Positions 1 to 10,993 of a stretch of 10,993 bases of DNA are shown here, piece after piece. The first letter of the stretch is position 1; every line of letters begins with the position of its first letter. Both the position numbers and the translations under genes were made by a program. Origin of the DNA: Methanomicrobiales archaeon (GTDB taxonomy: Archaea; Halobacteriota; Methanomicrobia; Methanomicrobiales; Methanospirillaceae); NCBI GenBank assembly GCA_037137755.1, contig JBAXJR010000062.1, positions 1 to 10,993 of the forward strand. Direction: 5' to 3'. A model generated the notes under the pieces. It was given only the letters and a program-made list of their open reading frames with translations. It had not been told where the DNA came from and did no database searches.

Positions 1-142
1 CATCAGCTTCTACAAGACATTCGGATTTGTACCAATCCCCGAGGACCAGCTGCCGCAGATGATAAAGGACCGGATCAATTTCTGCTTCGGTGAAATGGCC
101 GGGTGCAAAGTCTGCCCCATGCGGAGGGAGGCGGGGATTTGA
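1..142 (+). pseudogene. 3' end of a GNAT acetyltransferase repeat copy (D-type), cut by the window start
   Basis: Encodes ISFYKTFGFVPIPEDQLPQMIKDRINFCFGEMAGCKVCPMRREAGI*, identical to 7405..7546. The 5' part is not visible, so pseudogene status is inferred from copy D. Confidence 0.75.
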
Positions 143-224
143 ATGGTATTGGTTGTGCCAGAATAGTGGGCAATAGCGAAAAAAAGTACAATCCGAAAAA
201 CCAACGGGTTCCATATCTCATATC

Positions 225-230
225 TTTATA
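225..230 (+). promoter_or_regulatory. Putative archaeal TATA box for hicB
   Basis: TTTATA about 37 nt upstream of the ATG at 267. Confidence 0.4.
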
Positions 231-266
231 GAAGCCTCATGCATACGGTAAAAATAAGATTAAATT

Positions 267-494
267 ATGAAACTCTCTATTCTCATCGAACGGGATGAAG
301 ATGGTAGGTATGTTGTGGAGTGCACCGATCTGCCAGGATGCTTGAACGAAGGTGAGACTCTCAAGGAGGCAATCGAAAATATCAATGAGGCAATTGTCGG
401 CTGTATCAAGTCTCGGTTGAAGATTGCTTCGGATAAGAAAAATCTAAAACGGTTCTCCAACAATACCTTTGATAGAGGGCCGGTTCAACAGTAA
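267..494 (+). CDS. hicB: HicB-family antitoxin (short type), with no intact hicA neighbour
   Basis: ILIERDEDGRYVVECTDLPGCLNEGETLKEAIENINEAI fits the HicB pattern (DG.y.v..PdLPGc.s.GeT.eEA..n..eAi). Confidence 0.85.
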   Translation: MKLSILIERDEDGRYVVECTDLPGCLNEGETLKEAIENINEAIVGCIKSRLKIASDKKNLKRFSNNTFDRGPVQQ

Positions 495-532
495 TCCTCG
501 TTGGTTGGTAAGGGCATTTTCTGCATAATTCC

Positions 533-580
533 TATATAGTATCGTTCATAATAATGAACATATGTTCAAAAGCATGAACA
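533..580 (+). promoter_or_regulatory. TATA box followed by two tandem palindromic operators GTTCA-N6-TGAAC
   Basis: TATATA at 533-538, GTTCAtaataaTGAAC at 544-559 and GTTCAaaagcaTGAAC at 564-579, overlapping the start of the wHTH-MNT gene. Confidence 0.7.
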
Positions 581-1107
581 TTCTCGGAACTCCCACGTTC
601 GAGACTCTCGTATTCCTCGGTCGACATTACCGGAACAGTTACTACGTCAGGGAGCTGGCAAAGATACTCACGATCAGTACCGGTGCTGCGAGCGGACAAC
701 TCCGGGCACTGGAAGAGTTGGGTCTTGTGACAAACGAGAAGAAAGGGAGGACTCTCTTGTTCAGAGCCAGTATCTCGCACCCGATCGTGAGGGAGGCAAA
801 AATTTTCGCAACCCTGCTTGAACTCTCGCCGCTAATCGTAGCAGGGCAACGTGGGACCGTGCGGATGATTCTCTTTGGAAGTTGTGCAGTGGGAGAAGAT
901 ACTTTTGAAAGCGATATCGATCTCTACATAGAAACAACAGACCGTCCGGCAGCAAAGACTCTGATATCGCAAGTTGAGTCCTTCGTATTACGGAAAATTT
1001 CTCCGATCATTGTCTCACCAGCCGAGGCTATGCAGATCCGGACACGTGACCGTCCGCTGTTCGAGCGAATACAAGGTGGGAAGCTCCTGGTGGGTGAACA
1101 AATATGA
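562..1107 (+). CDS. Winged-HTH plus minimal nucleotidyltransferase (MNT) antitoxin/regulator
   Basis: N-terminal HTH (YVRELAKILTISTGAASGQLRALEELGLV) and MNT motif LFGSCAVGEDTFESDIDL (GS-X10-DXD). An alternative ATG exists at 574. Confidence 0.9.
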   Translation: MFKSMNILGTPTFETLVFLGRHYRNSYYVRELAKILTISTGAASGQLRALEELGLVTNEKKGRTLLFRASISHPIVREAKIFATLLELSPLIVAGQRGTVRMILFGSCAVGEDTFESDIDLYIETTDRPAAKTLISQVESFVLRKISPIIVSPAEAMQIRTRDRPLFERIQGGKLLVGEQI

Positions 1108-1520
1108 GATACAATTTCGAGGAATGTATGGAGCGGGGAAAGATCGTAAAAATTCCCATTGACCAGGGCCTTGTTGCAAAGGAACTGCGCGAAGCGGAAG
1201 CGGATCTTGCCGCAGCAGAGCGATCGCTTCAAGATCATCAGGAGAAATGGGCGATCATACAGGGATACTATTCGCTCTTCCACTCGCTAAGGTCCCAGGT
1301 ATTTGGCAAAGGCTACCGTGAGAAGAGCCATCGCTGCCTGAAGTATGCGGTTGAAGCCCTGTTCGTTGACCAAGGATTACTTGATCCGGTAGTACTTGAA
1401 CACTTTTCTTTTGCCATGGATCTTCGTGAAGGTGCTGATTACAGTTGCATCTATAATGAGGAGTCAGCCCATATCGTGGTCATGTCAGCACGATCGGTGT
1501 ATGAGATGGTCAGGCCTTGA
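1104..1520 (+). CDS. HEPN domain protein, putative toxin partner of the MNT
   Basis: ATGA overlap with the MNT gene. AEADLAAAE...WAIIQGYYSLFH...KSH...LREGADY is typical of MNT-associated HEPN proteins. Confidence 0.88.
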   Translation: MRYNFEECMERGKIVKIPIDQGLVAKELREAEADLAAAERSLQDHQEKWAIIQGYYSLFHSLRSQVFGKGYREKSHRCLKYAVEALFVDQGLLDPVVLEHFSFAMDLREGADYSCIYNEESAHIVVMSARSVYEMVRP

Positions 1521-1972
1521 AGGAGAACCCCCCCCTCACCCGCGACCTCATCCCTGCCGAATTCCCCCTCGTCAAAGAGGTCTGGTACCACTATCACCAG
1601 CAGGAGGCAAACCCCGCCGAAGACCGCATTTTCGGCACCTTTGTTGACGGGACCCTGGCTGTAGTTGTCCGGTGCAGGCAGCACCCGGACGGCCACGAAG
1701 TCGATGGCGTCTTCACCCTTGAAGAATTCCGCGGGCACGACCTTGCCCGGCTCGTCATGCAGGCATTAATCGACGCCTGCGGCTATGAAGAACTATACAT
1801 GCACTCGACCCTGCAACTCATCAGCTTCTACAAGACATTCGGATTTGTACCAATCCCCGAGGACCAGCTGCCGAAGATGATCCGGGAACGGTTCCTCTTC
1901 TGCTTCGGCGAAATGGCCGGGTGCAAACGGTCTGCCCGATGCGGAGGGAGGCCGGTGGTGGGTGAATGGTAA
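1517..1972 (+). CDS. GNAT-family N-acetyltransferase copy A, near-intact but probably degenerate
   Basis: VDGVFTLEEFRGHDLAR (motif A-like) and FYKTFGF (motif B). It has AAC where copy B has ATG, leaving only a TTG start. A +2 nt shift at ~1928 garbles the conserved VCPMRR end, and RGRG is changed to RGHD. Confidence 0.7.
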   Translation: MKENPPLTRDLIPAEFPLVKEVWYHYHQQEANPAEDRIFGTFVDGTLAVVVRCRQHPDGHEVDGVFTLEEFRGHDLARLVMQALIDACGYEELYMHSTLQLISFYKTFGFVPIPEDQLPKMIRERFLFCFGEMAGCKRSARCGGRPVVGEW

Positions 1973-2191
1973 CGGATAGGCTTTGGTTGCGTATTAACCA
2001 ATACAGACAGAAGTTAGAGTGCAACTTGCGGATTGCCATATAACAATGATTGAACCGGGCTCATGCGGATCTCGACATTTAGGGGCTTGGAAAAAATCCA
2101 GGAAACACGTAGGTGGTACAAAAAAATCAGGATCAATAATACCTGTGCTGACTGGAAATGTGTCTCTTGATCACGATCCCGGAAACACAAA

Positions 2192-2197
2192 TTTAAG
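2192..2197 (+). promoter_or_regulatory. Putative archaeal TATA box for the MNT-HepT operon
   Basis: TTTAAG with an A-rich upstream segment, about 30 nt before ATG 2227. Confidence 0.4.
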
Positions 2198-2226
2198 AGT
2201 AATTACGCCAATAATGGAAATAACAT

Positions 2227-2511
2227 ATGAATGTGCTCGCATTGCTCCGCCAGCATGAATCAATACTGGAAGAATGCTTCGGGGTCAAAAGGATAGGAAT
2301 CTTCGGTTCATTCGTTCGCGGAGAAGAGCGCCCGGACAGTGACGTGGATGTTCTTGTCGTATTTCAAAAAGACGAGGAGACTTTCGATCATTATATGGAC
2401 TGCAAGTTTTATCTCGAAGACCTTTTTAACAGGAACGTGGACCTCGTCATCGAGGACACCATCAAACAGAGGCTCAAAGAACCGATCCTCAGTGAAGTGA
2501 TCTATGCATAG
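2227..2511 (+). CDS. MNT (MntA-like) nucleotidyltransferase antitoxin
   Basis: IGIFGSFVRGEERPDSDVDVLV and LEDLFNRNVDLV, 94 aa. Confidence 0.93.
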   Translation: MNVLALLRQHESILEECFGVKRIGIFGSFVRGEERPDSDVDVLVVFQKDEETFDHYMDCKFYLEDLFNRNVDLVIEDTIKQRLKEPILSEVIYA

Positions 2512-2854
2512 GTCCGTCCTTCAGTATCTCGACGATATCATTGAAGCAATTGGCAATATAGATGAGGATACTACTGGAATTTCATTTGATGATTTTGTTG
2601 CAGACAGGAGAAGAAAGGATGCGGTAATCCGTAATTTCGAGGTTATCGGTGAAGCGACAAAGAATCTCCCTGATAATCTCAAAGAACAGTATCCGAATAC
2701 AGACTGGAGAAAAATTTCAGGTTTTCGCGATGTCCTTTCACATGCATATTTTGGTATCAAGACAACTATTCTTTGGGACAACATAAAGAACAAACTGCCA
2801 GTCCTTAAAACAGAAATCCGGCAGATAATCAGGATTGAAGAATCACGAAAGTGA
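2504..2854 (+). CDS. DUF86/HepT-like HEPN RNase toxin
   Basis: DAVIRNFEVIGEA and WRKISGFRDVLSHAY (R-X4-H-X-Y). Overlaps the MNT stop codon. Confidence 0.93.
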   Translation: MHRSVLQYLDDIIEAIGNIDEDTTGISFDDFVADRRRKDAVIRNFEVIGEATKNLPDNLKEQYPNTDWRKISGFRDVLSHAYFGIKTTILWDNIKNKLPVLKTEIRQIIRIEESRK

Positions 2855-2987
2855 AAATTGATGCACTGTTTTATTTCATACTCTTTCTAAAAAGGAATGA
2901 CAATATGATGTTCAATATTTCAGGACCAGGTCATTTTTGCCAGAGAAATCGCGGATGAATGAATCATGATTGATGGTCGGGACAGGA

Positions 2988-3424
2988 ATGTCCCCCCTTA
3001 CCCGCGAACTCACCCCTGCCGAATTCCCCCTCGTCAAAGAGGTCTGGTACCACTACCACCAGCAGGAGGCCAACCCCTAAGAAGACCGCATATTCGGCAC
3101 CTTTTTCGACGGGACACTCGCAGCCGTTGCCCAGGTACCAGGCTACACCCGGACGGCCACGAAGTCGACGGCGTCTTCACCCTGGAAGAATTCCGCGGGC
3201 GTGGCCTAGCCAGGCTCGTCGTGCAGGCATTGGTCGACGCATGCGGGCATGAAGAGCTGAACATGCACTCCACCCTGCAACTCATCAGCTTCTACAAGAC
3301 ATTCGGTTTTGTACCAATCCCCGAGGACCAGCTGCCGAAGATGATCCGGGAACGGTTCCTCTTCTGCTTCGGCGAAATGGCCGGGTGCAATGTCTGTCCC
3401 ATGCGGAGGGTGGCGACACCGTGA
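2988..3424 (+). pseudogene. GNAT acetyltransferase copy B
   Basis: ATG at 2988 reads MSPLTRELTPAEFPLVKEVWYHYHQQEANP, then in-frame TAA at 3078-3080. A +2 frameshift lies at 3131-3142, and the C-terminal half is intact to VCPMRRVATP*. Confidence 0.88.
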
Positions 3425-3534
3425 TACAGGATGTAGTCAGATTATGGTAAAAATGTGGAGAGAAAGACCATGGATAAGTGGACGATTAGAGAAATAATTA
3501 TTGTCAGGTGTGATAGAATAGAACTGGAGAATAA

Positions 3535-3828
3535 ATGACACCCCGCGATGAAATCCTCGATCTCCTCAGATCATTACAAAGCGATCTTACCCTACGGTAT
3601 AAAGTCCGAAGGATCGGAATATTCGGCTCTTTTGCAAGAATTGAGTCCAGGCCTGACAGTGATGTGGACATACTCGTTGATTTCAATCCCGGCGCGGATC
3701 TCTTCGATCTCATCGAACTCTCCCAGTATCTGGAGGAAAAAATCGGCAGGCATGTGGACCTGGCAACACCCCGGGCACTCAGGCCTGAGATACGGGAAAG
3801 CGTCTTCCGGGACGTTGTGTACGCATGA
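3535..3828 (+). CDS. MNT (MntA-like) nucleotidyltransferase antitoxin
   Basis: IGIFGSFARIESRPDSDVDILVDF and LEEKIGRHVDL, with GGAG upstream. Confidence 0.93.
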   Translation: MTPRDEILDLLRSLQSDLTLRYKVRRIGIFGSFARIESRPDSDVDILVDFNPGADLFDLIELSQYLEEKIGRHVDLATPRALRPEIRESVFRDVVYA

Positions 3829-4163
3829 GAGAATACCGCCTTTTCCTGGTTGATATAATGAAGGCCGCGGAAGATATCGAGGTCTTCACCACGGGGATGT
3901 CTTTTGAAGAATTCGTTGATGATGATAAGACAATATCAGCCGTACTCTATAAATTCGCAATAATGGGTGAGGCCACAACAATGCTGACAGATCAGGTCCG
4001 TGCACAACATCCTGACATCCCTTGGCGAAGCATAGCAGGACTGCGTGACAAAGTGATTCATGGGTATATCGGTGTGGATTATGAACTTCTTTGGGAGACA
4101 ATTGAGTTGAAACTTCCCGCGGTCATAAGAGCTCTTCACACCATCCTTGAAAAAGAAAAATGA
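3825..4163 (+). CDS. DUF86/HepT-like HEPN RNase toxin
   Basis: ATGA overlap with the MNT gene. HPDIPWRSIAGLRDKVIHGY (R-X4-H-X-Y). Confidence 0.93.
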   Translation: MREYRLFLVDIMKAAEDIEVFTTGMSFEEFVDDDKTISAVLYKFAIMGEATTMLTDQVRAQHPDIPWRSIAGLRDKVIHGYIGVDYELLWETIELKLPAVIRALHTILEKEK

Positions 4164-4393
4164 TGCAGGATAAATAATTTTGACAAATATCCCCTCTGGT
4201 CAACCGTGATCCAGGTCCAATTACTTCCTGAAACAGAATTTCCAGAGCGGTAAATATTCAATCCAAACCACACTCTTACCAATGACTGTTTAATATCCTC
4301 GTAAGAATGAGAAGATTATGGTGCAAACAGCAGGGAAATGAACCGTTTTGGTCTTCATGCATTCCTGTCATATAATGAATTCCTCGTTCCCGG

Positions 4394-4827
4394 CCGCCCC
4401 TCACCCGCGAACTCACCGTATCCGGATTCCCCCTCCTCAAAGAAGTCTGGTATCACTATCACCAACAGGAGGCGGATCCCGCCGAAGACCGCATATTCGG
4501 CATCTTTATAGACGGGACTCTTGCCGCTGTTGCCCAGGTACCAGGCTTTATCCGGACGGGCACGAAGTCGACGGTGTCTTCACTCTTGAAGAGTTCCGCG
4601 GGCGTGGCCTTGCCCGGCTCGTGGTGCAGACGTTGATCGATGCATGCGGGCATGAAGAGCTGTACATGCACTCGACCCTGCAACTCATCAGCTTCTACAA
4701 GACATTCGGTTTTGTGCCGATCCCCGAGGACCAGCTGCCAAAGATGATCCGGGAACGGTTCCTCTTCTGCTTCGGCGAAATGGCCGGGTGCAATATCTGT
4801 CCCATGCGGAGGGTGGCGGGGATTTGA
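4394..4827 (+). pseudogene. GNAT acetyltransferase copy C
   Basis: PLTRELTVSGFPLLKEVWYHYHQQEADPAEDRIFG with no in-frame start. Same +2 frameshift (4534-4545). Ends ICPMRRVAGI*. Confidence 0.88.
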
Positions 4828-4859
4828 ATGGTACTGGTTGTGCCAGAATATAGTCAAAG

Positions 4860-4881
4860 AACAGAAAAAAAAATTTCTGTT
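4860..4881. terminator. Possible terminator between convergent genes
   Basis: AACAGAAA-aaaaaa-TTTCTGTT inverted repeat. The A run is an oligo-T tract on the minus strand just after the hicB remnant stop. Confidence 0.35.
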
Positions 4882-4898
4882 GTTCCGGCACGACGAGA

Positions 4899-5111
4899 TT
4901 ATACGGTAACAGTTTCGATACTCACACGGCTGATAATGAACTCATCATCAACCGGGACCAATTCGTTATCCTCCATTAAACAGGCGATATGGAGTTCGAT
5001 TGCGTCCTTGGTGTTCGTAATCGTCTCTTCAACAGTCTCCCCCTGCGAGACGCATCCAGAAAGCGCCTGAACTTCAGCCTTGTGGATTAAAATCGTATAT
5101 TCGTGATTTTC
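4899..5111 (-). pseudogene. hicB: HicB-family antitoxin remnant, absent from the ORF track
   Basis: The minus strand reads ENHEYTILIHKAEVQALSGCVSQGETVEETITNTKDAIELHIACLMEDNELVPVDDEFIISRVSIETVTV*. There is no start codon (TGA immediately upstream) and the usual EGGY.. segment is missing. Confidence 0.82.
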
Positions 5112-5129
5112 TCAATTATAGTAGTTTTC

Positions 5130-5609
5130 TCAATCGCCTTCCCAATCATCATACTGACTGCGTGCTTTTTTCACAGATTGTATGCATTCCGGATCCGATT
5201 TTCCGCGTATGGTAGGTTCGATGCACAGCAGTTCGACTCGGAATTTCCAGTTGTTGCCGTAATCGAAGAAGAAGAGCATCATCTTTCCAATTTCAGTGAA
5301 CACGGTGTTCACCGGCGTCTTTTTCACGCCTTTCACGAACGATGGACATTCACTTCGGGTGTTCGGGTCATCAAAGAAGAGCTCATACGCTTCGGTTGCA
5401 TCTATGTAACGTATCAGGTGGTTGTAGAACCCAAAGGAATGATCAAAGTCAAAGTCGACACTATCCGTGATGAATTCTGCAAACTGGTAGAGGGTGAATT
5501 CTTCTGGAATCGCAAGTACCCGATATGGGGAACCTTTTATCCCGGCAACCCATTGATAGACTTTGAAGACTAAAATATGTTCTCCATGTTGTTCTTGTTG
5601 GGTTTTCAT
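5130..5609 (-). CDS. pRiA4b ORF-3-like / IS1096 passenger TnpR-like protein
   Basis: YRVLAIPEEFTLYQFAEFITDSVDFDFDHSFGF and FFFDYGNNWKFRVEL match this family's pattern, recognised from memory. Confidence 0.75.
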   Translation of the reverse strand: MKTQQEQHGEHILVFKVYQWVAGIKGSPYRVLAIPEEFTLYQFAEFITDSVDFDFDHSFGFYNHLIRYIDATEAYELFFDDPNTRSECPSFVKGVKKTPVNTVFTEIGKMMLFFFDYGNNWKFRVELLCIEPTIRGKSDPECIQSVKKARSQYDDWEGD

Positions 5610-6100
5610 CCTTCATATTCCGTGCATTTTTTCGTCTTTCTGATATGAAGTGGTGGGCTGCTATACTATTTGCAGACTGTGCTCGCGGTTATTGTGAATA
5701 GCACCAGTAATCACAAGCGTTCAGAGAATGGAGTACCAGGACATCCCGAACTGGTTCACGTACATGATCCCCTGGTAACGAAGAATGAGTGGAAGGGCAT
5801 AAACAGAACACGCAGTATGAAACGGTCACGGTTGGAATCGGTGTTTAATCGGGATATTCCATGACCCTACATGGAAAACAGATCTTCCCGCCCGTTCTTT
5901 GTACTATCATCGACACATTAATTATCCCCCGATTGGAATCTGCTGCCACCAACGGTGTCGGTCCCGAACCGTATAGGGAAATTTTTATCGTTTTAGGTTT
6001 CCTGCTTTTACATGCTGGAAGCGATGGTTAACAGGAAAGCTGATTATGTACGTGCAATAATGAACTAAGTAACCACGAGTTCAGATGCTGGTGGAAACCT

Positions 6101-6286
6101 ATGGAAGTTGAAGAACAGATTATCAGCGAATTACATCAGGTACCGCGGCAGCATTATCGTGAGATCCTTGACTTTATCAGGTCTCTGCAAATGAAATCCG
6201 CCAATGAAACTGCGTACGCAAGTGAGTCCTCTCTCGCAAAAGACTGGTTGCGCCTTGAGGAGGACGAAGCATGGGCGGATTTGTAA
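6101..6286 (+). CDS. Small antitoxin (DUF2281-like) upstream of MazF
   Basis: REILDFIRSL and an acidic tail ASESSLAKDWLRLEEDEAWADL. Overlaps the mazF start. Confidence 0.8.
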   Translation: MEVEEQIISELHQVPRQHYREILDFIRSLQMKSANETAYASESSLAKDWLRLEEDEAWADL

Positions 6287-6603
6287 AAGGCGACGTTGTT
6301 GTTGTCCTCTTTCCTTTTTCTGATTTGAGCAGTGCCAAAAAACGCCCGGCACTCGTTGTTTCCGTACTTGATGGAGATGATGTTATCCTTTGTCAGATCA
6401 CGAGCCAGCGGATAACTGACCAATACGCAATTCCTCTCATTGATAACCATTTCTCATCAGGATCACTCCAGCGGGAGAGCAACGTCCGGCCGAACCGATT
6501 GTTCACAGCAGATACCCGGATTATTCAATACAGGGTGGGCCACCTCAAAGATCAGGCAATTGAACCAGTTATTAATAGGATAATCGGTATACTCAAAAAG
6601 TGA
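6271..6603 (+). CDS. mazF: PemK/MazF-family endoribonuclease toxin
   Basis: KGDVVVVLFPFSDLSSAKKRPALVVS...ILCQITS signature. Confidence 0.92.
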   Translation: MGGFVKGDVVVVLFPFSDLSSAKKRPALVVSVLDGDDVILCQITSQRITDQYAIPLIDNHFSSGSLQRESNVRPNRLFTADTRIIQYRVGHLKDQAIEPVINRIIGILKK

Positions 6604-6642
6604 GATATCTCTAAAATAATCTCAGCACTACATGGGTGTAAT

Positions 6643-6868
6643 ATGGAATATACCGTTGTCCTCGAACCACAGGAAGAAGGCGGATATTTCGTCCAGTGTG
6701 TGAAGTTACCCGGGGCCATCAGCCGGGGGACTCAAAAGAGGAAGCGCTTACCAATATTAAAGAAGCAATCGAACTCGTTTTAGAGGTCCAGCGTGAAGAA
6801 CTCCAAACAAACAAACAAACATCTTCCATTCGGAAATTGTCAAAGTTGACGTGGCGAATGTCTCGTAA
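6643..6868 (+). pseudogene. hicB: Frameshifted HicB antitoxin
   Basis: ATG 6643 reads MEYTVVLEPQEEGGYFVQCVKLPGAIS, then a frameshift at the G run ~6725 leads to GDSKEEALTNIKEAIELVLEV. A probable second shift leads to EIVKVDVANVS*. Confidence 0.85.
6804..6820 (+). repeat. (CAAA)4 microsatellite inside the hicB pseudogene
   Basis: caaacaaacaaacaaac. Confidence 0.8.
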
Positions 6869-7079
6869 ACTTCCGGTAATCTCTGGTGAGAAGATGGTCA
6901 TTGGTCCTTGCAAAGCAGGGCTTCGAAATCAGGTGGCAAACGTCAAGTCATATTGTTGTGCAGAAAGAATAGCGGGTATTTGCAGTTCCTCTTCATAAGG
7001 AGTTGAAGAAAGGGACACTTATGGCAATTTTGAAACAACGGATATAACGGTTGAGGAATTTAAGCAATTTTTTAATTGA
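6858..7079 (+). pseudogene. hicA: Degenerate HicA mRNA interferase
   Basis: Fragments across frames: MSRKLPVISGEKMV / FEIRWQ / SSHIVVQKE*RVFAVPLHKELKKGTLMAILKQ / DITVEEFKQFFN*. TAG at 6970-6972. Confidence 0.85.
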
Positions 7080-7121
7080 TCTGGTGATACATCCGATTAG
7101 CGGAATATCTGATGTGCGGAA

Positions 7122-7546
7122 ACCCGCGAACTCACCGTATCCGAATTCCCCCTCGTCAAAGAGGTCTGGTACCACTACCACCAGCAGGAGGCCGATCCCA
7201 CCGAAGACCGCATATTCGGCACCTTTATCGATGGGACTCTTGCCGCCGTCGCCCAGGTACCAGGCTTCATCCGGACGGGCACGAAGTCGACGGTGTCTTC
7301 ACTCTTGAAGAGTTCCGCGGGCGTGGCCTTGCCCGGCTCGTGGTGCAGACGTTGATCGATGCATGCGGGCATGAAGAGCTGTACATGCACTCGACCCTGC
7401 AACTCATCAGCTTCTACAAGACATTCGGATTTGTACCAATCCCCGAGGACCAGCTGCCGCAGATGATAAAGGACCGGATCAATTTCTGCTTCGGTGAAAT
7501 GGCCGGGTGCAAAGTCTGCCCCATGCGGAGGGAGGCGGGGATTTGA
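7122..7546 (+). pseudogene. GNAT acetyltransferase copy D
   Basis: Homology starts abruptly at ACCCGCGAACTC (TREL) with no homologous start. Same +2 frameshift (7253-7264). Has a distinctive QMIKDRINF segment. Confidence 0.88.
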
Positions 7547-7670
7547 ATGGTATTGGTTGTGCCAGAATAGTGGGCAATAGCGAAAAAAAGTACAATCCGA
7601 AAAACCAACGGGTTCCATATCTCATATCTTTATAGAAGCCTCATGCATACGGTAAAAATAAGATTAAATT

Positions 7671-7898
7671 ATGAAACTCTCTATTCTCATCGAACGGGAT
7701 GAAGATGGTAGGTATGTTGTGGAGTGCACCGATCTGCCAGGATGCTTGAACGAAGGTGAGACTCTCAAGGAGGCAATCGAAAATATCAATGAGGCAATTG
7801 TCGGCTGTATCAAGTCTCGGTTGAAGATTGCTTCGGATAAGAAAAATCTAAAACGGTTCTCCAACAATACCTTTGATAGAGGGCCGGTTCAACAGTAA
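7671..7898 (+). CDS. hicB: HicB-family antitoxin (duplicate)
   Basis: Identical translation to 267..494. Confidence 0.85.
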   Translation: MKLSILIERDEDGRYVVECTDLPGCLNEGETLKEAIENINEAIVGCIKSRLKIASDKKNLKRFSNNTFDRGPVQQ

Positions 7899-7936
7899 TC
7901 CTCGTTGGTTGGTAAGGGCATTTTCTGCATAATTCC

Positions 7937-7984
7937 TATATAGTATCGTTCATAATAATGAACATATGTTCAAAAGCATGAACA
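7937..7984 (+). promoter_or_regulatory. TATA box plus tandem GTTCA-N6-TGAAC operators (duplicate)
   Basis: Same as 533..580. Confidence 0.7.
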
Positions 7985-8511
7985 TTCTCGGAACTCCCAC
8001 GTTCGAGACTCTCGTATTCCTCGGTCGACATTACCGGAACAGTTACTACGTCAGGGAGCTGGCAAAGATACTCACGATCAGTACCGGTGCTGCGAGCGGA
8101 CAACTCCGGGCACTGGAAGAGTTGGGTCTTGTGACAAACGAGAAGAAAGGGAGGACTCTCTTGTTCAGAGCCAGTATCTCGCACCCGATCGTGAGGGAGG
8201 CAAAAATTTTCGCAACCCTGCTTGAACTCTCGCCGCTAATCGTAGCAGGGCAACGTGGGACCGTGCGGATGATTCTCTTTGGAAGTTGTGCAGTGGGAGA
8301 AGATACTTTTGAAAGCGATATCGATCTCTACATAGAAACAACAGACCGTCCGGCAGCAAAGACTCTGATATCGCAAGTTGAGTCCTTCGTATTACGGAAA
8401 ATTTCTCCGATCATTGTCTCACCAGCCGAGGCTATGCAGATCCGGACACGTGACCGTCCGCTGTTCGAGCGAATACAAGGTGGGAAGCTCCTGGTGGGTG
8501 AACAAATATGA
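7966..8511 (+). CDS. wHTH-MNT antitoxin (duplicate)
   Basis: Identical translation to 562..1107. Confidence 0.9.
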   Translation: MFKSMNILGTPTFETLVFLGRHYRNSYYVRELAKILTISTGAASGQLRALEELGLVTNEKKGRTLLFRASISHPIVREAKIFATLLELSPLIVAGQRGTVRMILFGSCAVGEDTFESDIDLYIETTDRPAAKTLISQVESFVLRKISPIIVSPAEAMQIRTRDRPLFERIQGGKLLVGEQI

Positions 8512-8924
8512 GATACAATTTCGAGGAATGTATGGAGCGGGGAAAGATCGTAAAAATTCCCATTGACCAGGGCCTTGTTGCAAAGGAACTGCGCGAAGCG
8601 GAAGCGGATCTTGCCGCAGCAGAGCGATCGCTTCAAGATCATCAGGAGAAATGGGCGATCATACAGGGATACTATTCGCTCTTCCACTCGCTAAGGTCCC
8701 AGGTATTTGGCAAAGGCTACCGTGAGAAGAGCCATCGCTGCCTGAAGTATGCGGTTGAAGCCCTGTTCGTTGACCAAGGATTACTTGATCCGGTAGTACT
8801 TGAACACTTTTCTTTTGCCATGGATCTTCGTGAAGGTGCTGATTACAGTTGCATCTATAATGAGGAGTCAGCCCATATCGTGGTCATGTCAGCACGATCG
8901 GTGTATGAGATGGTCAGGCCTTGA
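8508..8924 (+). CDS. HEPN domain protein (duplicate)
   Basis: Identical translation to 1104..1520. Confidence 0.88.
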   Translation: MRYNFEECMERGKIVKIPIDQGLVAKELREAEADLAAAERSLQDHQEKWAIIQGYYSLFHSLRSQVFGKGYREKSHRCLKYAVEALFVDQGLLDPVVLEHFSFAMDLREGADYSCIYNEESAHIVVMSARSVYEMVRP

Positions 8925-9376
8925 AGGAGAACCCCCCCCTCACCCGCGACCTCATCCCTGCCGAATTCCCCCTCGTCAAAGAGGTCTGGTACCACTATCA
9001 CCAGCAGGAGGCAAACCCCGCCGAAGACCGCATTTTCGGCACCTTTGTTGACGGGACCCTGGCTGTAGTTGTCCGGTGCAGGCAGCACCCGGACGGCCAC
9101 GAAGTCGATGGCGTCTTCACCCTTGAAGAATTCCGCGGGCACGACCTTGCCCGGCTCGTCATGCAGGCATTAATCGACGCCTGCGGCTATGAAGAACTAT
9201 ACATGCACTCGACCCTGCAACTCATCAGCTTCTACAAGACATTCGGATTTGTACCAATCCCCGAGGACCAGCTGCCGAAGATGATCCGGGAACGGTTCCT
9301 CTTCTGCTTCGGCGAAATGGCCGGGTGCAAACGGTCTGCCCGATGCGGAGGGAGGCCGGTGGTGGGTGAATGGTAA
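8921..9376 (+). CDS. GNAT copy A' (duplicate, probably degenerate)
   Basis: Identical translation to 1517..1972. Confidence 0.7.
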   Translation: MKENPPLTRDLIPAEFPLVKEVWYHYHQQEANPAEDRIFGTFVDGTLAVVVRCRQHPDGHEVDGVFTLEEFRGHDLARLVMQALIDACGYEELYMHSTLQLISFYKTFGFVPIPEDQLPKMIRERFLFCFGEMAGCKRSARCGGRPVVGEW

Positions 9377-9630
9377 CGGATAGGCTTTGGTTGCGTATTA
9401 ACCAATACAGACAGAAGTTAGAGTGCAACTTGCGGATTGCCATATAACAATGATTGAACCGGGCTCATGCGGATCTCGACATTTAGGGGCTTGGAAAAAA
9501 TCCAGGAAACACGTAGGTGGTACAAAAAAATCAGGATCAATAATACCTGTGCTGACTGGAAATGTGTCTCTTGATCACGATCCCGGAAACACAAATTTAA
9601 GAGTAATTACGCCAATAATGGAAATAACAT

Positions 9631-9915
9631 ATGAATGTGCTCGCATTGCTCCGCCAGCATGAATCAATACTGGAAGAATGCTTCGGGGTCAAAAGGATAG
9701 GAATCTTCGGTTCATTCGTTCGCGGAGAAGAGCGCCCGGACAGTGACGTGGATGTTCTTGTCGTATTTCAAAAAGACGAGGAGACTTTCGATCATTATAT
9801 GGACTGCAAGTTTTATCTCGAAGACCTTTTTAACAGGAACGTGGACCTCGTCATCGAGGACACCATCAAACAGAGGCTCAAAGAACCGATCCTCAGTGAA
9901 GTGATCTATGCATAG
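9631..9915 (+). CDS. MNT antitoxin (duplicate)
   Basis: Identical translation to 2227..2511. Confidence 0.93.
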   Translation: MNVLALLRQHESILEECFGVKRIGIFGSFVRGEERPDSDVDVLVVFQKDEETFDHYMDCKFYLEDLFNRNVDLVIEDTIKQRLKEPILSEVIYA

Positions 9916-10258
9916 GTCCGTCCTTCAGTATCTCGACGATATCATTGAAGCAATTGGCAATATAGATGAGGATACTACTGGAATTTCATTTGATGATTTT
10001 GTTGCAGACAGGAGAAGAAAGGATGCGGTAATCCGTAATTTCGAGGTTATCGGTGAAGCGACAAAGAATCTCCCTGATAATCTCAAAGAACAGTATCCGA
10101 ATACAGACTGGAGAAAAATTTCAGGTTTTCGCGATGTCCTTTCACATGCATATTTTGGTATCAAGACAACTATTCTTTGGGACAACATAAAGAACAAACT
10201 GCCAGTCCTTAAAACAGAAATCCGGCAGATAATCAGGATTGAAGAATCACGAAAGTGA
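9908..10258 (+). CDS. DUF86/HepT-like toxin (duplicate)
   Basis: Identical translation to 2504..2854. Confidence 0.93.
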   Translation: MHRSVLQYLDDIIEAIGNIDEDTTGISFDDFVADRRRKDAVIRNFEVIGEATKNLPDNLKEQYPNTDWRKISGFRDVLSHAYFGIKTTILWDNIKNKLPVLKTEIRQIIRIEESRK

Positions 10259-10391
10259 AAATTGATGCACTGTTTTATTTCATACTCTTTCTAAAAAGGA
10301 ATGACAATATGATGTTCAATATTTCAGGACCAGGTCATTTTTGCCAGAGAAATCGCGGATGAATGAATCATGATTGATGGTCGGGACAGGA

Positions 10392-10828
10392 ATGTCCCCC
10401 CTTACCCGCGAACTCACCCCTGCCGAATTCCCCCTCGTCAAAGAGGTCTGGTACCACTACCACCAGCAGGAGGCCAACCCCTAAGAAGACCGCATATTCG
10501 GCACCTTTTTCGACGGGACACTCGCAGCCGTTGCCCAGGTACCAGGCTACACCCGGACGGCCACGAAGTCGACGGCGTCTTCACCCTGGAAGAATTCCGC
10601 GGGCGTGGCCTAGCCAGGCTCGTCGTGCAGGCATTGGTCGACGCATGCGGGCATGAAGAGCTGAACATGCACTCCACCCTGCAACTCATCAGCTTCTACA
10701 AGACATTCGGTTTTGTACCAATCCCCGAGGACCAGCTGCCGAAGATGATCCGGGAACGGTTCCTCTTCTGCTTCGGCGAAATGGCCGGGTGCAATGTCTG
10801 TCCCATGCGGAGGGTGGCGACACCGTGA
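10392..10828 (+). pseudogene. GNAT copy B' (duplicate)
   Basis: Same TAA and frameshift as 2988..3424. Confidence 0.88.
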
Positions 10829-10938
10829 TACAGGATGTAGTCAGATTATGGTAAAAATGTGGAGAGAAAGACCATGGATAAGTGGACGATTAGAGAAATA
10901 ATTATTGTCAGGTGTGATAGAATAGAACTGGAGAATAA

Positions 10939-10993
10939 ATGACACCCCGCGATGAAATCCTCGATCTCCTCAGATCATTACAAAGCGATCTTA
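10939..10993 (+). CDS. 5' end of MNT antitoxin (duplicate of 3535..3828), cut by the window end
   Basis: MTPRDEILDLLRSLQSDL. Confidence 0.85.
   Translation, partial: MTPRDEILDLLRSLQSDL

Follow-up and report, generated by a model that had tools for sequence, protein, structure and literature searches.

Copies of one GNAT gene alternating with toxin-antitoxin modules at a chromosomal locus of uncultured methanogens

Background

How does an archaeal chromosome come to hold a row of similar, mostly broken copies of one small gene, with a different toxin-antitoxin (TA) module between most neighbouring copies? The question is raised by a stretch of 10,993 bp from a Methanomicrobiales archaeon (contig JBAXJR010000062.1 of assembly GCA_037137755.1). 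This stretch, hereafter the window, is the whole of contig C62 in a metagenome-assembled genome (MAG) of 106 contigs and 2.64 Mb, which we call G000. The repeated gene belongs to the GNAT acetyltransferases. A preliminary description of the window proposed that the GNAT sequence acts as a homology arm for the capture, shuffling and excision of TA cassettes by homologous recombination, as in an integron array that works without an integrase.

We lean towards a history in which general homologous recombination has reshaped an old tandem array of GNAT paralogues at one chromosomal locus, and in which TA modules, being addictive, have survived deletion. Sequence comparisons show several of its parts: a conserved site, a seemingly working upstream copy, gene conversion, duplication and loss of cassettes with breakpoints in or at the repeats, and no dedicated machinery.

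Results and discussion

Structure of the array

The open reading frame (ORF) list and a repeat finder place GNAT repeats, all in one orientation, at positions 1-142, 1517-1972, 2992-3424, 4394-4827, 7122-7546, 8921-9376 and 10396-10828 of the window. They had been described as seven co-oriented copies of four distinct alleles. Comparison of the window with itself revealed that bases 1-3589 equal bases 7405-10993 without a mismatch (0/3589), and therefore three of the seven repeats are the same DNA written twice and four are distinct. The co-oriented repeats of about 430 bp and the four alleles thus stand, while the count of seven does not. We refer to the four copies, all on the forward strand, as 62B (1517-1972), 62C (2992-3424), 62D (4394-4827) and 62A (7122-7546, of which the 3' end at 7405-7546 is also found at 1-142). 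The second writing, at 7405-10993 on the forward strand, follows the first with a period of 7404 bp; this redundancy at the contig ends probably arose because the assembler went round a cycle in its graph.

The only other GNAT DNA in this MAG is on contig C4, where four more copies (4a, 4b, 4c and 4d) lie between ordinary chromosomal genes. Copy 4a (C4:7563-8012), at the upstream end of the array, is an intact gene of 149 amino acids with an ATG start; the preliminary description had suggested looking for such an intact master gene at an array end. Copy 4b is in frame and has no ATG, GTG or TTG start, 4c is 99.8% identical to 62D, and 4d is decayed, with two stops. The modules between these copies are HicA/HicB, MNT/HepT and PIN/DUF2281 (VapBC-like).

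The two contigs share an exact repeat. A tract of 1,279 bp in the window (3535-4813, forward strand), consisting of the third cargo and nearly all of 62D, is 100% identical to C4:9497-10775. Upstream of the tract, identity between the contigs falls to about 80-94% in the GNAT copy and the spacer. We placed Logan contigs from four lake or freshwater metagenome runs (X1, X2, X6 and X8) on window positions 3425-10391, a stretch that leaves 62C outside. In all four runs the shared tract had about twice the depth of the DNA found only in the loop: 45 versus 17.5-26 in X1, 59-61 versus 26-32 in X2, 9.4-13 versus 2.3-6.9 in X6, and 12.5 versus 3-7 in X8; these are short contigs that are unable to show circles, deletions or the full array. 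A loose end of the Logan contigs at window position 4817 corresponds to the continuation on C4. In addition, metagenome contig L088 (6,357 bp), which may derive from the same data as the MAG and is hence not independent, reads 62D-cargo 4-62A-cargo 1-62B-cargo 2-62C-cargo 3 at 100% identity and ends at both edges of the shared tract.

Most likely, then, the window is an assembly loop of the chromosomal array on C4, and its period of 7404 bp is the loop between two identical 1279-bp tracts. The array would total eight copies and seven cargos in about 12 kb, most likely in the order upstream flank, 4a, HicAB, 4b, MNT/HepT, 62D, cargo 4, 62A, cargo 1, 62B, cargo 2, 62C, MNT/HepT, 4c, VapBC-like module, 4d, downstream flank.

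Recombination between copies

Several copies carry the marks of sequence exchange. Copy 62A is a mosaic: it is 100% identical to 62D and 4c over reference positions 176-300 and 88-92% before them, and its 3' end is 87% identical to 62D and closest to 4a. Likewise, 62B and 62C are 99% identical over reference positions 326-400 and 79-93% elsewhere. A runs test on 109 variable sites gave p <= 0.001 for 5 of the 20 pairs tested (62A-62D, 62A-4c, 62B-62C, 62B-62D and 62B-4c), which amount to three independent comparisons because 4c and 62D are 99.8% identical. The exact tract of 1,279 bp represents a whole duplicated cassette, ending 14 bases before a GNAT stop codon, and is evidence of recent duplication or conversion. 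These observations bear out that part of the earlier idea in which the repeats recombine with one another; the further idea that they are selected as homology arms finds a coding signature in its place, as described below.

In a maximum-likelihood tree of 35 copies, all five copies from G010, a genome of the same genus, form one clade (support 99/92), and the copies of G012 and G002 form another (90/95). With groups named from that tree, the approximately unbiased (AU) test rejected monophyly of the first copies (p 1.8e-5) and disfavoured the positional pair behind MNT/HepT, namely 4c/62D with G010_14845 (p 0.043). Blocks of GNAT, cargo and GNAT are collinear between G000 and G010 at 88.8% and 86.3% identity, and the flanking housekeeping genes are at 85-90%. 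Taken together, the comparisons indicate an old, largely vertically inherited array that has evolved in concert: copies cluster within genomes rather than with their positional orthologues, and conversion tracts are present, as in a tandem gene family undergoing concerted evolution.

Other arrangements of the same parts exist in lake communities. In the lake metagenomes, loose ends at window positions 9374, 7121, 6642, 6753, 6802, 9781 and 4165 run into DNA that is absent from the MAG; GNAT ends and cargo pieces identical to those of the window have this other continuation there.

Decay and coding signature of the copies

In a multiple alignment, the homology among copies begins at a poly-C tract at about codons 5-8 and stops at or just past the stop codon, very much as the preliminary description had it. 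That description considered all four alleles damaged. This is true of 62A, 62C and 62D, which are frameshifted by one complex +2 insertion at reference position 160 common to all three; 62C also has an in-frame TAA in the native frame, and 62A is truncated at its 5' end. It is less true of 62B, which has a TTG start and a complete GNAT domain (Pfam E 6.5e-8) and in which only the C-terminal tail is altered: a +2 change at reference position 416 gives it a different sequence over about 10 final codons. Both damage alleles, the +2 at position 160 and the 62B-type tail, recur in downstream copies of other species and in none of the first copies among those examined.

The copies had also been called damaged as genes yet similar as DNA. 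The four window copies are indeed 84.9-92.3% identical in pairwise comparisons, but the similarity carries a coding signature rather than being conservation of bare DNA. Substitutions between copies are mostly synonymous in the native frame, with ratios of nonsynonymous to synonymous divergence (dN/dS) of 0.06-0.27 over codons 55-138 and 0.05-0.23 over codons 10-53. Only the N-terminal part of 4d, the most decayed copy, has a higher dN/dS, 0.6-1.4. Copies of one genome differ from each other by a dS of 0.15-1.3. The similarity of the copies looks like the product of past protein-level constraint plus conversion, and the breaks in them are either late or overwritten by conversion. The ORFs at 2966-3424 (62C) and 4348-4827 (62D) are kept open through an alternative frame; the alternative-frame N-termini of the +2 copies were considered as real proteins and ruled out, since the pattern of substitutions is that of the native frame.

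A poly-C run of 4-8 bases lies exactly at the start of homology in every GNAT copy, for example at window positions 1530-1545 and 2995-3010 and, on locus contig L001, at 7575-7590 and 8950-8990. The nearest ATG of 4b and of 62D is in the +1 frame relative to GNAT. The length of the poly-C run could conceivably switch GNAT translation on and off.

The enzyme itself would be, by sequence searches, an ordinary generic small acetyltransferase. No NCBIfam model scored above its cut-off (best 17.8 bits against 154), and the best PDB sequence match is the generic GNAT 3ec4 (E 1e-7).

The locus in related genomes

With the intact GNAT protein as query, matches were found in 38 of 41 related genomes, this one included. 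High-identity arrays of several copies are confined to the organism's own genus, a group of uncultured Methanoregulaceae known from lake and sediment MAGs. Among 13 species genomes of the genus (including G000), nine have at least two copies or a copy and a fragment, three have one copy only (G007, G008 and G009), and in one, G005, which is 74% complete, a GNAT of this type was not found. Among the nine, G010 has six copies in one contig of 52.7 kb and G004 three in a contig of 193 kb.

The site is the same throughout the genus. Upstream lie pilin-like DUF7287/7288 genes, a large VWA/Big_1 protein and a small divergent gene; downstream lie a gene of 132 amino acids, FmdE and an RNase H-like gene. 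In every genome where the first copy, the one adjoining the upstream flank, was observed, it is in frame (G000, G010, G011, G007 and G003, and in G004 over the 281 bp available). Downstream copies have in several species shrunk to pieces of 58-250 bp. Different species share cargo types, at 88-94% DNA identity and in differing order and number, so that the variable TA cargo which the preliminary description had hoped to see between GNAT copies in relatives is found there, at the same locus. In G009 the single GNAT gene abuts FmdE with no TA module, plausibly the ancestral state.

The small divergent gene upstream of the intact GNAT gene (L001 6875-7591; 238 amino acids in G000, with counterparts on L002, L004 and L019) has no Pfam family. 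It evolves very fast: its protein is 30% identical between G000 and G010, against 85% for FmdE.

Outside the genus there is a single copy of the gene. Of 30 loci scanned, 9 have UvrB as one of the two genes directly downstream of it, and at three loci the GNAT gene lies beside one MNT gene in an RNase H-HisG context. The possibility that GNAT copies elsewhere are solitary and without TA association thus describes the other genera, and not the own genus with its nine arrays. A family-wide DNA search, which scored three candidates per genome and so gives no copy numbers, returned matches of at least 80% in the own genus plus one genome of another genus, G101; the contig concerned, possibly misbinned, belongs to the lake series that also gave G012. 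Contig L068 (206-4149), again of that lake series and binned as Methanoregula, another GTDB genus, has pieces of GNAT with about 83% identity together with the ParE/Phd cassette type of G012; it is either misbinned or transferred. A simpler arrangement is present on L056 (8001-9825), a contig of a Methanoregula MAG, where a full GNAT gene is followed by a gene of the RhuM family (350 amino acids) and a GNAT 3' fragment of 146 bp that is 84% identical to the full copy; this would be an independent insertion with target duplication in another genus.

Search for dedicated machinery

If the array were assembled by a site-specific system, a recombinase might lie at its ends, as the preliminary description had proposed to check. 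The whole-MAG search for tyrosine recombinases (PF00589) returned 11 matches, none of them on C4 or C62, and Pfam scans of the array flanks in G000 and relatives found no integrase in or beside the cargo. On this point the label "integrase-free" is upheld. A scan of window positions 1-7600 found no attC-like inverted repeats at the GNAT-cargo borders; the three short palindromes seen are all inside cargo. Rfam gave no family in window positions 1-7700.

The claim of cassette capture, on which the likeness to an integron turned, found no support. No cassette was seen entering from outside the array, the blocks are collinear and have diverged like their housekeeping flanks, and attC-like sites are missing from the borders scanned.

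Cargo of the array

The four spacers of the window, of about 1.4, 1.0, 1.0 and 2.3 kb, are mutually unrelated, and each contains one intact overlapping TA pair, in agreement with the earlier account. That account was incomplete for cargos 1 and 4, which hold further genes or pieces of genes (HicB-like, PRiA4_ORF3 and broken HicB/HicA).

Cargo 1 (143-1516, forward strand) has an orphan HicB-like gene (267-494) and a TA-like pair of an HTH-nucleotidyltransferase (562-1107) and a HEPN protein (1104-1520). A palindrome of 19 nt at 544-579 overlaps the start (562) of the nucleotidyltransferase gene and is likely to be the operator of the pair. Cargo 2 (1973-2991, forward) encodes MNT (2227-2511) and HepT (2504-2854), and cargo 3 (3425-4393, forward) encodes another MNT (3535-3828) with its HepT (3825-4163). 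Between two species with 85-90% identity in the housekeeping DNA of the flanks, the cargo-3 MNT (window 3535-3825 compared with L002 13991-14281) has 99% protein identity, and the HepT paired with it is 90% identical.

Cargo 4 (4828-7121, no single strand assigned) is composite. It begins with a HicB remnant on the reverse strand (4828-5078), homologous to the DNA after copy 4a, followed by a PRiA4_ORF3 gene on the reverse strand (5130-5609) and then by the intact pair, a DUF2281-like antitoxin (6101-6286) and a PemK-MazF toxin (6271-6603). At its end are a HicB gene split over two frames (6643-6998) and a HicA gene with an in-frame TAG (6904-7038). Intact versions of this broken HicB/HicA cassette (6643-7038) lie between GNAT copies in G004 and G010, at 93-94% DNA identity.

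The window and C4 cargos have the layout of type II or type VII TA modules, with two small adjacent or overlapping genes of known toxin and antitoxin families, and by family and gene layout they are predicted TA modules. To see how general this is, we took a census of the genus loci, the window, 29 metagenome contigs and two further loci, in all 51 loci with 114 copies or fragments. The 63 intervals between copies collapsed to 45 distinct ones at 97% identity, and 38 of these contained TA genes, 36 by a match to a Pfam family counted as TA (HicA/HicB, MNT/HepT, HEPN, PIN, PemK, ParE, Phd, RelE/YafQ-like, DUF2281 and DUF2683) and two more by tblastn to the window TA proteins. Three intervals hold other genes (two AAA_14/DUF4143 ATPases and one HATPase_c_4/Fic-like_C protein of 664 amino acids), and four had no match at all, although these may hide small genes because ORFs were picked by a greedy heuristic. 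Cargo is present on both strands.

Within this MAG, the 12 kb or so of the array, out of 2.64 Mb, hold three of the eight distinct HepT places above the cut-off (one place being a contig-end fragment, and the redundant C62 match counted once) and two of the six HicA places. Contig C63 of G000, with a tyrosine recombinase at its end and HicA and HepT matches (27-461, 7592-7672 and 8805-9092), would be a second TA-rich island, one without GNAT repeats.

A proposed history and the evidence against it

In the history to which we lean, an ordinary small GNAT gene would have become a tandem array of paralogues with TA modules in the spacers. General homologous recombination between the 430-bp direct repeats, whether by unequal crossing-over, conversion, excision or re-entry, would set copy number and order. 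Neutral DNA between direct repeats would soon be deleted; loss of a TA cassette would free a stable toxin and kill the cell. TA modules may in this way pin themselves, and the dead GNAT copies next to them, in place. The cargo would consist almost only of TA modules because DNA between the repeats is readily deleted unless its loss is lethal. Richard et al. (2024, PMC13108822) describe TA cassettes as policing excision and deletion in the repeat arrays of chromosomal integrons.

Five points weigh against this history. First, its survivorship or addiction step is drawn by analogy from the TA cassettes of chromosomal integrons. Second, 7 of the 45 distinct intervals have no recognised TA gene, so non-addictive cargo can persist. 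Third, in G007 two adjacent MNT/HepT pairs, not separated by a GNAT copy, come after a single GNAT gene, and TA modules therefore also occupy the locus without repeats. Fourth, the divergence between copies (dS 0.15-1.3 with dN/dS 0.05-0.27) fits long-lived functional paralogues or imports at least as well as old pseudogenes. This leaves room for other histories, in which the copies would be functional paralogues of long standing or would have come by Campbell-type or ends-in import, of which L056 may be a simple example. Finally, some of the supporting tests have limits of their own: the loop model is based on depths of short-read assembly contigs that possibly include the source sample and cover the window stretch only, and the AU tests used groups that were chosen with the tree already in view.

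Alternative histories

A bolder version of the exchange between copies is possible, although we would be surprised by it. GNAT-plus-cargo circles would be looped out and re-inserted at any other copy. In a polyploid methanogen the receiving copy could be on a different copy of the chromosome, and DNA uptake could bring the circle into a related species; one pool of TA and defence cassettes would then be shared and reshuffled within the genus, and the array would be kept for that reason.

We regard as doubtful the stronger claim of a dedicated integrase-free capture platform, in which the GNAT repeats have been selected as homology arms and GNAT-plus-cargo circles are excised, shuffled and captured from other cells. 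All of the recombination evidence (the mosaics, the runs test and the 1279-bp tract) would suit it, as would order and content that vary between species and repeat borders that are equal in all copies. Moreover, seven of eight loose-end strings of the Logan contigs were not found in G000, and one X6 contig joins cargo 3 to a different GNAT 5' end. However, the collinear blocks have diverged only as their housekeeping flanks have, with no cassette seen entering from outside; the dead copies show no conservation beyond the coding-type pattern, and in several species they have decayed to the fragments of 58-250 bp. In addition, second-order selection for evolvability is weak in theory.

Serial import is doubtful to a similar degree. 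Here DNA from a related cell, consisting of part of a GNAT gene, a cargo and part of another GNAT gene, would integrate, in Campbell-type or ends-in fashion, into the resident GNAT gene and duplicate it, so that many copies would descend from the working genes of other lineages. This would account for low dN/dS together with high dS between the copies of one genome, its expected footprint is the layout of L056, and it would suit the cargo-3 MNT, at 99% protein identity between G000 and G010 despite flanks at 85-90% DNA identity. The copies, however, cluster by genome and not by cargo, each G000 copy has another copy from G000 as its closest relative, and the collinear blocks argue for vertical descent.

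It is quite improbable that the window is a real circular element of 7.4 kb or a true tandem duplication. The exact redundancy of 3,589 bp at the contig ends speaks for it, and a circle of just this kind would be set free if the two 1279-bp tracts recombined. On the other hand, no replication gene, and specifically no Rep family of the kind expected in a small plasmid or episome, was found among the window ORFs scanned, loop-only DNA has about half the depth of the C4-shared tract in all four runs, pointing to about one copy per chromosome, and L088 is linear and broken at the shared tract. Because the ORFs scanned include no replication gene, we also think it unlikely that the loop is a free circle of 7.4 kb present once per chromosome, or that it belongs to a second strain equally abundant in four samples. 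Apparent joints among the Logan contigs do not alter the picture: the "skip" joint 4340->8934 comes from one X6 contig with 52 letters on its short side and is too weak to count, and the joints 4818->3425 and 10391->8934 are not circle junctions but an artefact of 62C lying outside the mapped stretch.

Even less probable is that GNAT copies are working partners of the adjacent TA pairs, forming three-gene modules. The divergence is of coding type, frameshifted copies still have open frames of 144-159 amino acids that include the acetyl-CoA-binding half, and 4b and the second G010 copy are in frame. Yet the partners come from at least seven unrelated TA families on either strand, many copies are fragments, 4b lacks a start codon of any of the three kinds, and the gene is single-copy in most Methanoregula loci examined, with UvrB, in 9 of 30, one of its first two downstream neighbours.

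That there is no biological array at all, but an artefact of assembly or binning, is scarcely credible: the MAG is in 106 contigs and repeats do break assemblies, but the long contigs of G010 (six copies in 52.7 kb) and G004 (three in 193 kb) and many independent metagenome contigs contain arrays and already contradict it.

Comparison with known systems

The closest parallel in appearance is the sedentary chromosomal integron, such as the superintegron of Vibrio, which is likewise a long chromosomal array of short repeats alternating with small, TA-rich cargo. Richard et al. (2024, PMC13108822) relate that integron TA modules are thought to guard the array against excision and deletion. Unlike an integron, the GNAT array has no IntI on its contigs and no attC-like folded sites, its repeats are 430-bp copies of a host gene, and its cargo is on both strands. 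Integrons acquire cassettes from outside; for the GNAT array the comparative data give blocks that are collinear between species.

Orphan toxin-immunity arrays of the Rhs/CDI kind share another feature, an intact head gene followed by displaced partial copies, each beside a different toxin and antidote cargo. These arrays are rearranged by homologous recombination between their repeated parts, as reported by Koskiniemi et al. (2014, PMC3967940). There, however, the repeated sequence reads in frame into a variable toxin tip, and recombination changes which toxin is expressed. The GNAT homology instead ends at or just past the stop codon of the gene, and each cargo is a TA operon complete in itself.

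Tandem multigene families under concerted evolution are a third point of comparison: the GNAT copies are likewise direct tandem paralogues that cluster within genomes and not by position and have conversion tracts. The GNAT array is unlike them in its spacers, which hold unrelated selfish modules, and in its downstream copies, most of which are broken. Genomic islands integrate in tandem at gene ends and duplicate their target sequence, and L056 and the arrays resemble these in having a full target gene, cargo and a diverged partial or full second copy. The differences are that no integrase was found in or beside the cargo of the GNAT arrays and that a whole gene, not a short att core, is duplicated.

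Finally, a small GNAT gene close to TA genes recalls the GNAT toxins of TA systems of the TacT/AtaT kind. In these systems the GNAT is accompanied by a ribbon-helix-helix (RHH) or Xre antitoxin, according to Makarova et al. (2009, PMC2701414), where a HEPN-MNT pair inside a GNAT-related gene cluster of Deinococcus radiodurans is also mentioned; the resemblance of that cluster to the present array is loose. Here the GNAT gene has no RHH or Xre partner upstream (the gene upstream of 4a is the divergent 238-amino-acid ORF without a Pfam family), no toxin-type GNAT model matched, and outside the genus the gene occurs singly, without a link to TA genes.

In sum, the array resembles a sedentary integron and an Rhs/CDI orphan array but lacks the defining features of both, and it behaves as a tandem family in concerted evolution. 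Full-text literature searches, with subscription-only papers and supplements outside their scope, found no published description of GNAT-repeat/TA arrays.

Conclusions

Arrays of this kind can yield circular-looking MAG contigs that are not episomes, which calls for caution in interpreting such contigs. The locus also offers a natural test bed for the question of whether chromosomal TA modules persist by blocking deletion of the DNA around them, because its 430-bp direct repeats are a built-in substrate for deletion. If the history to which we lean is true, ordinary homologous recombination and addictive cargo can between them build and hold an ordered, integron-like cassette array in archaea, without an integrase or attC sites.

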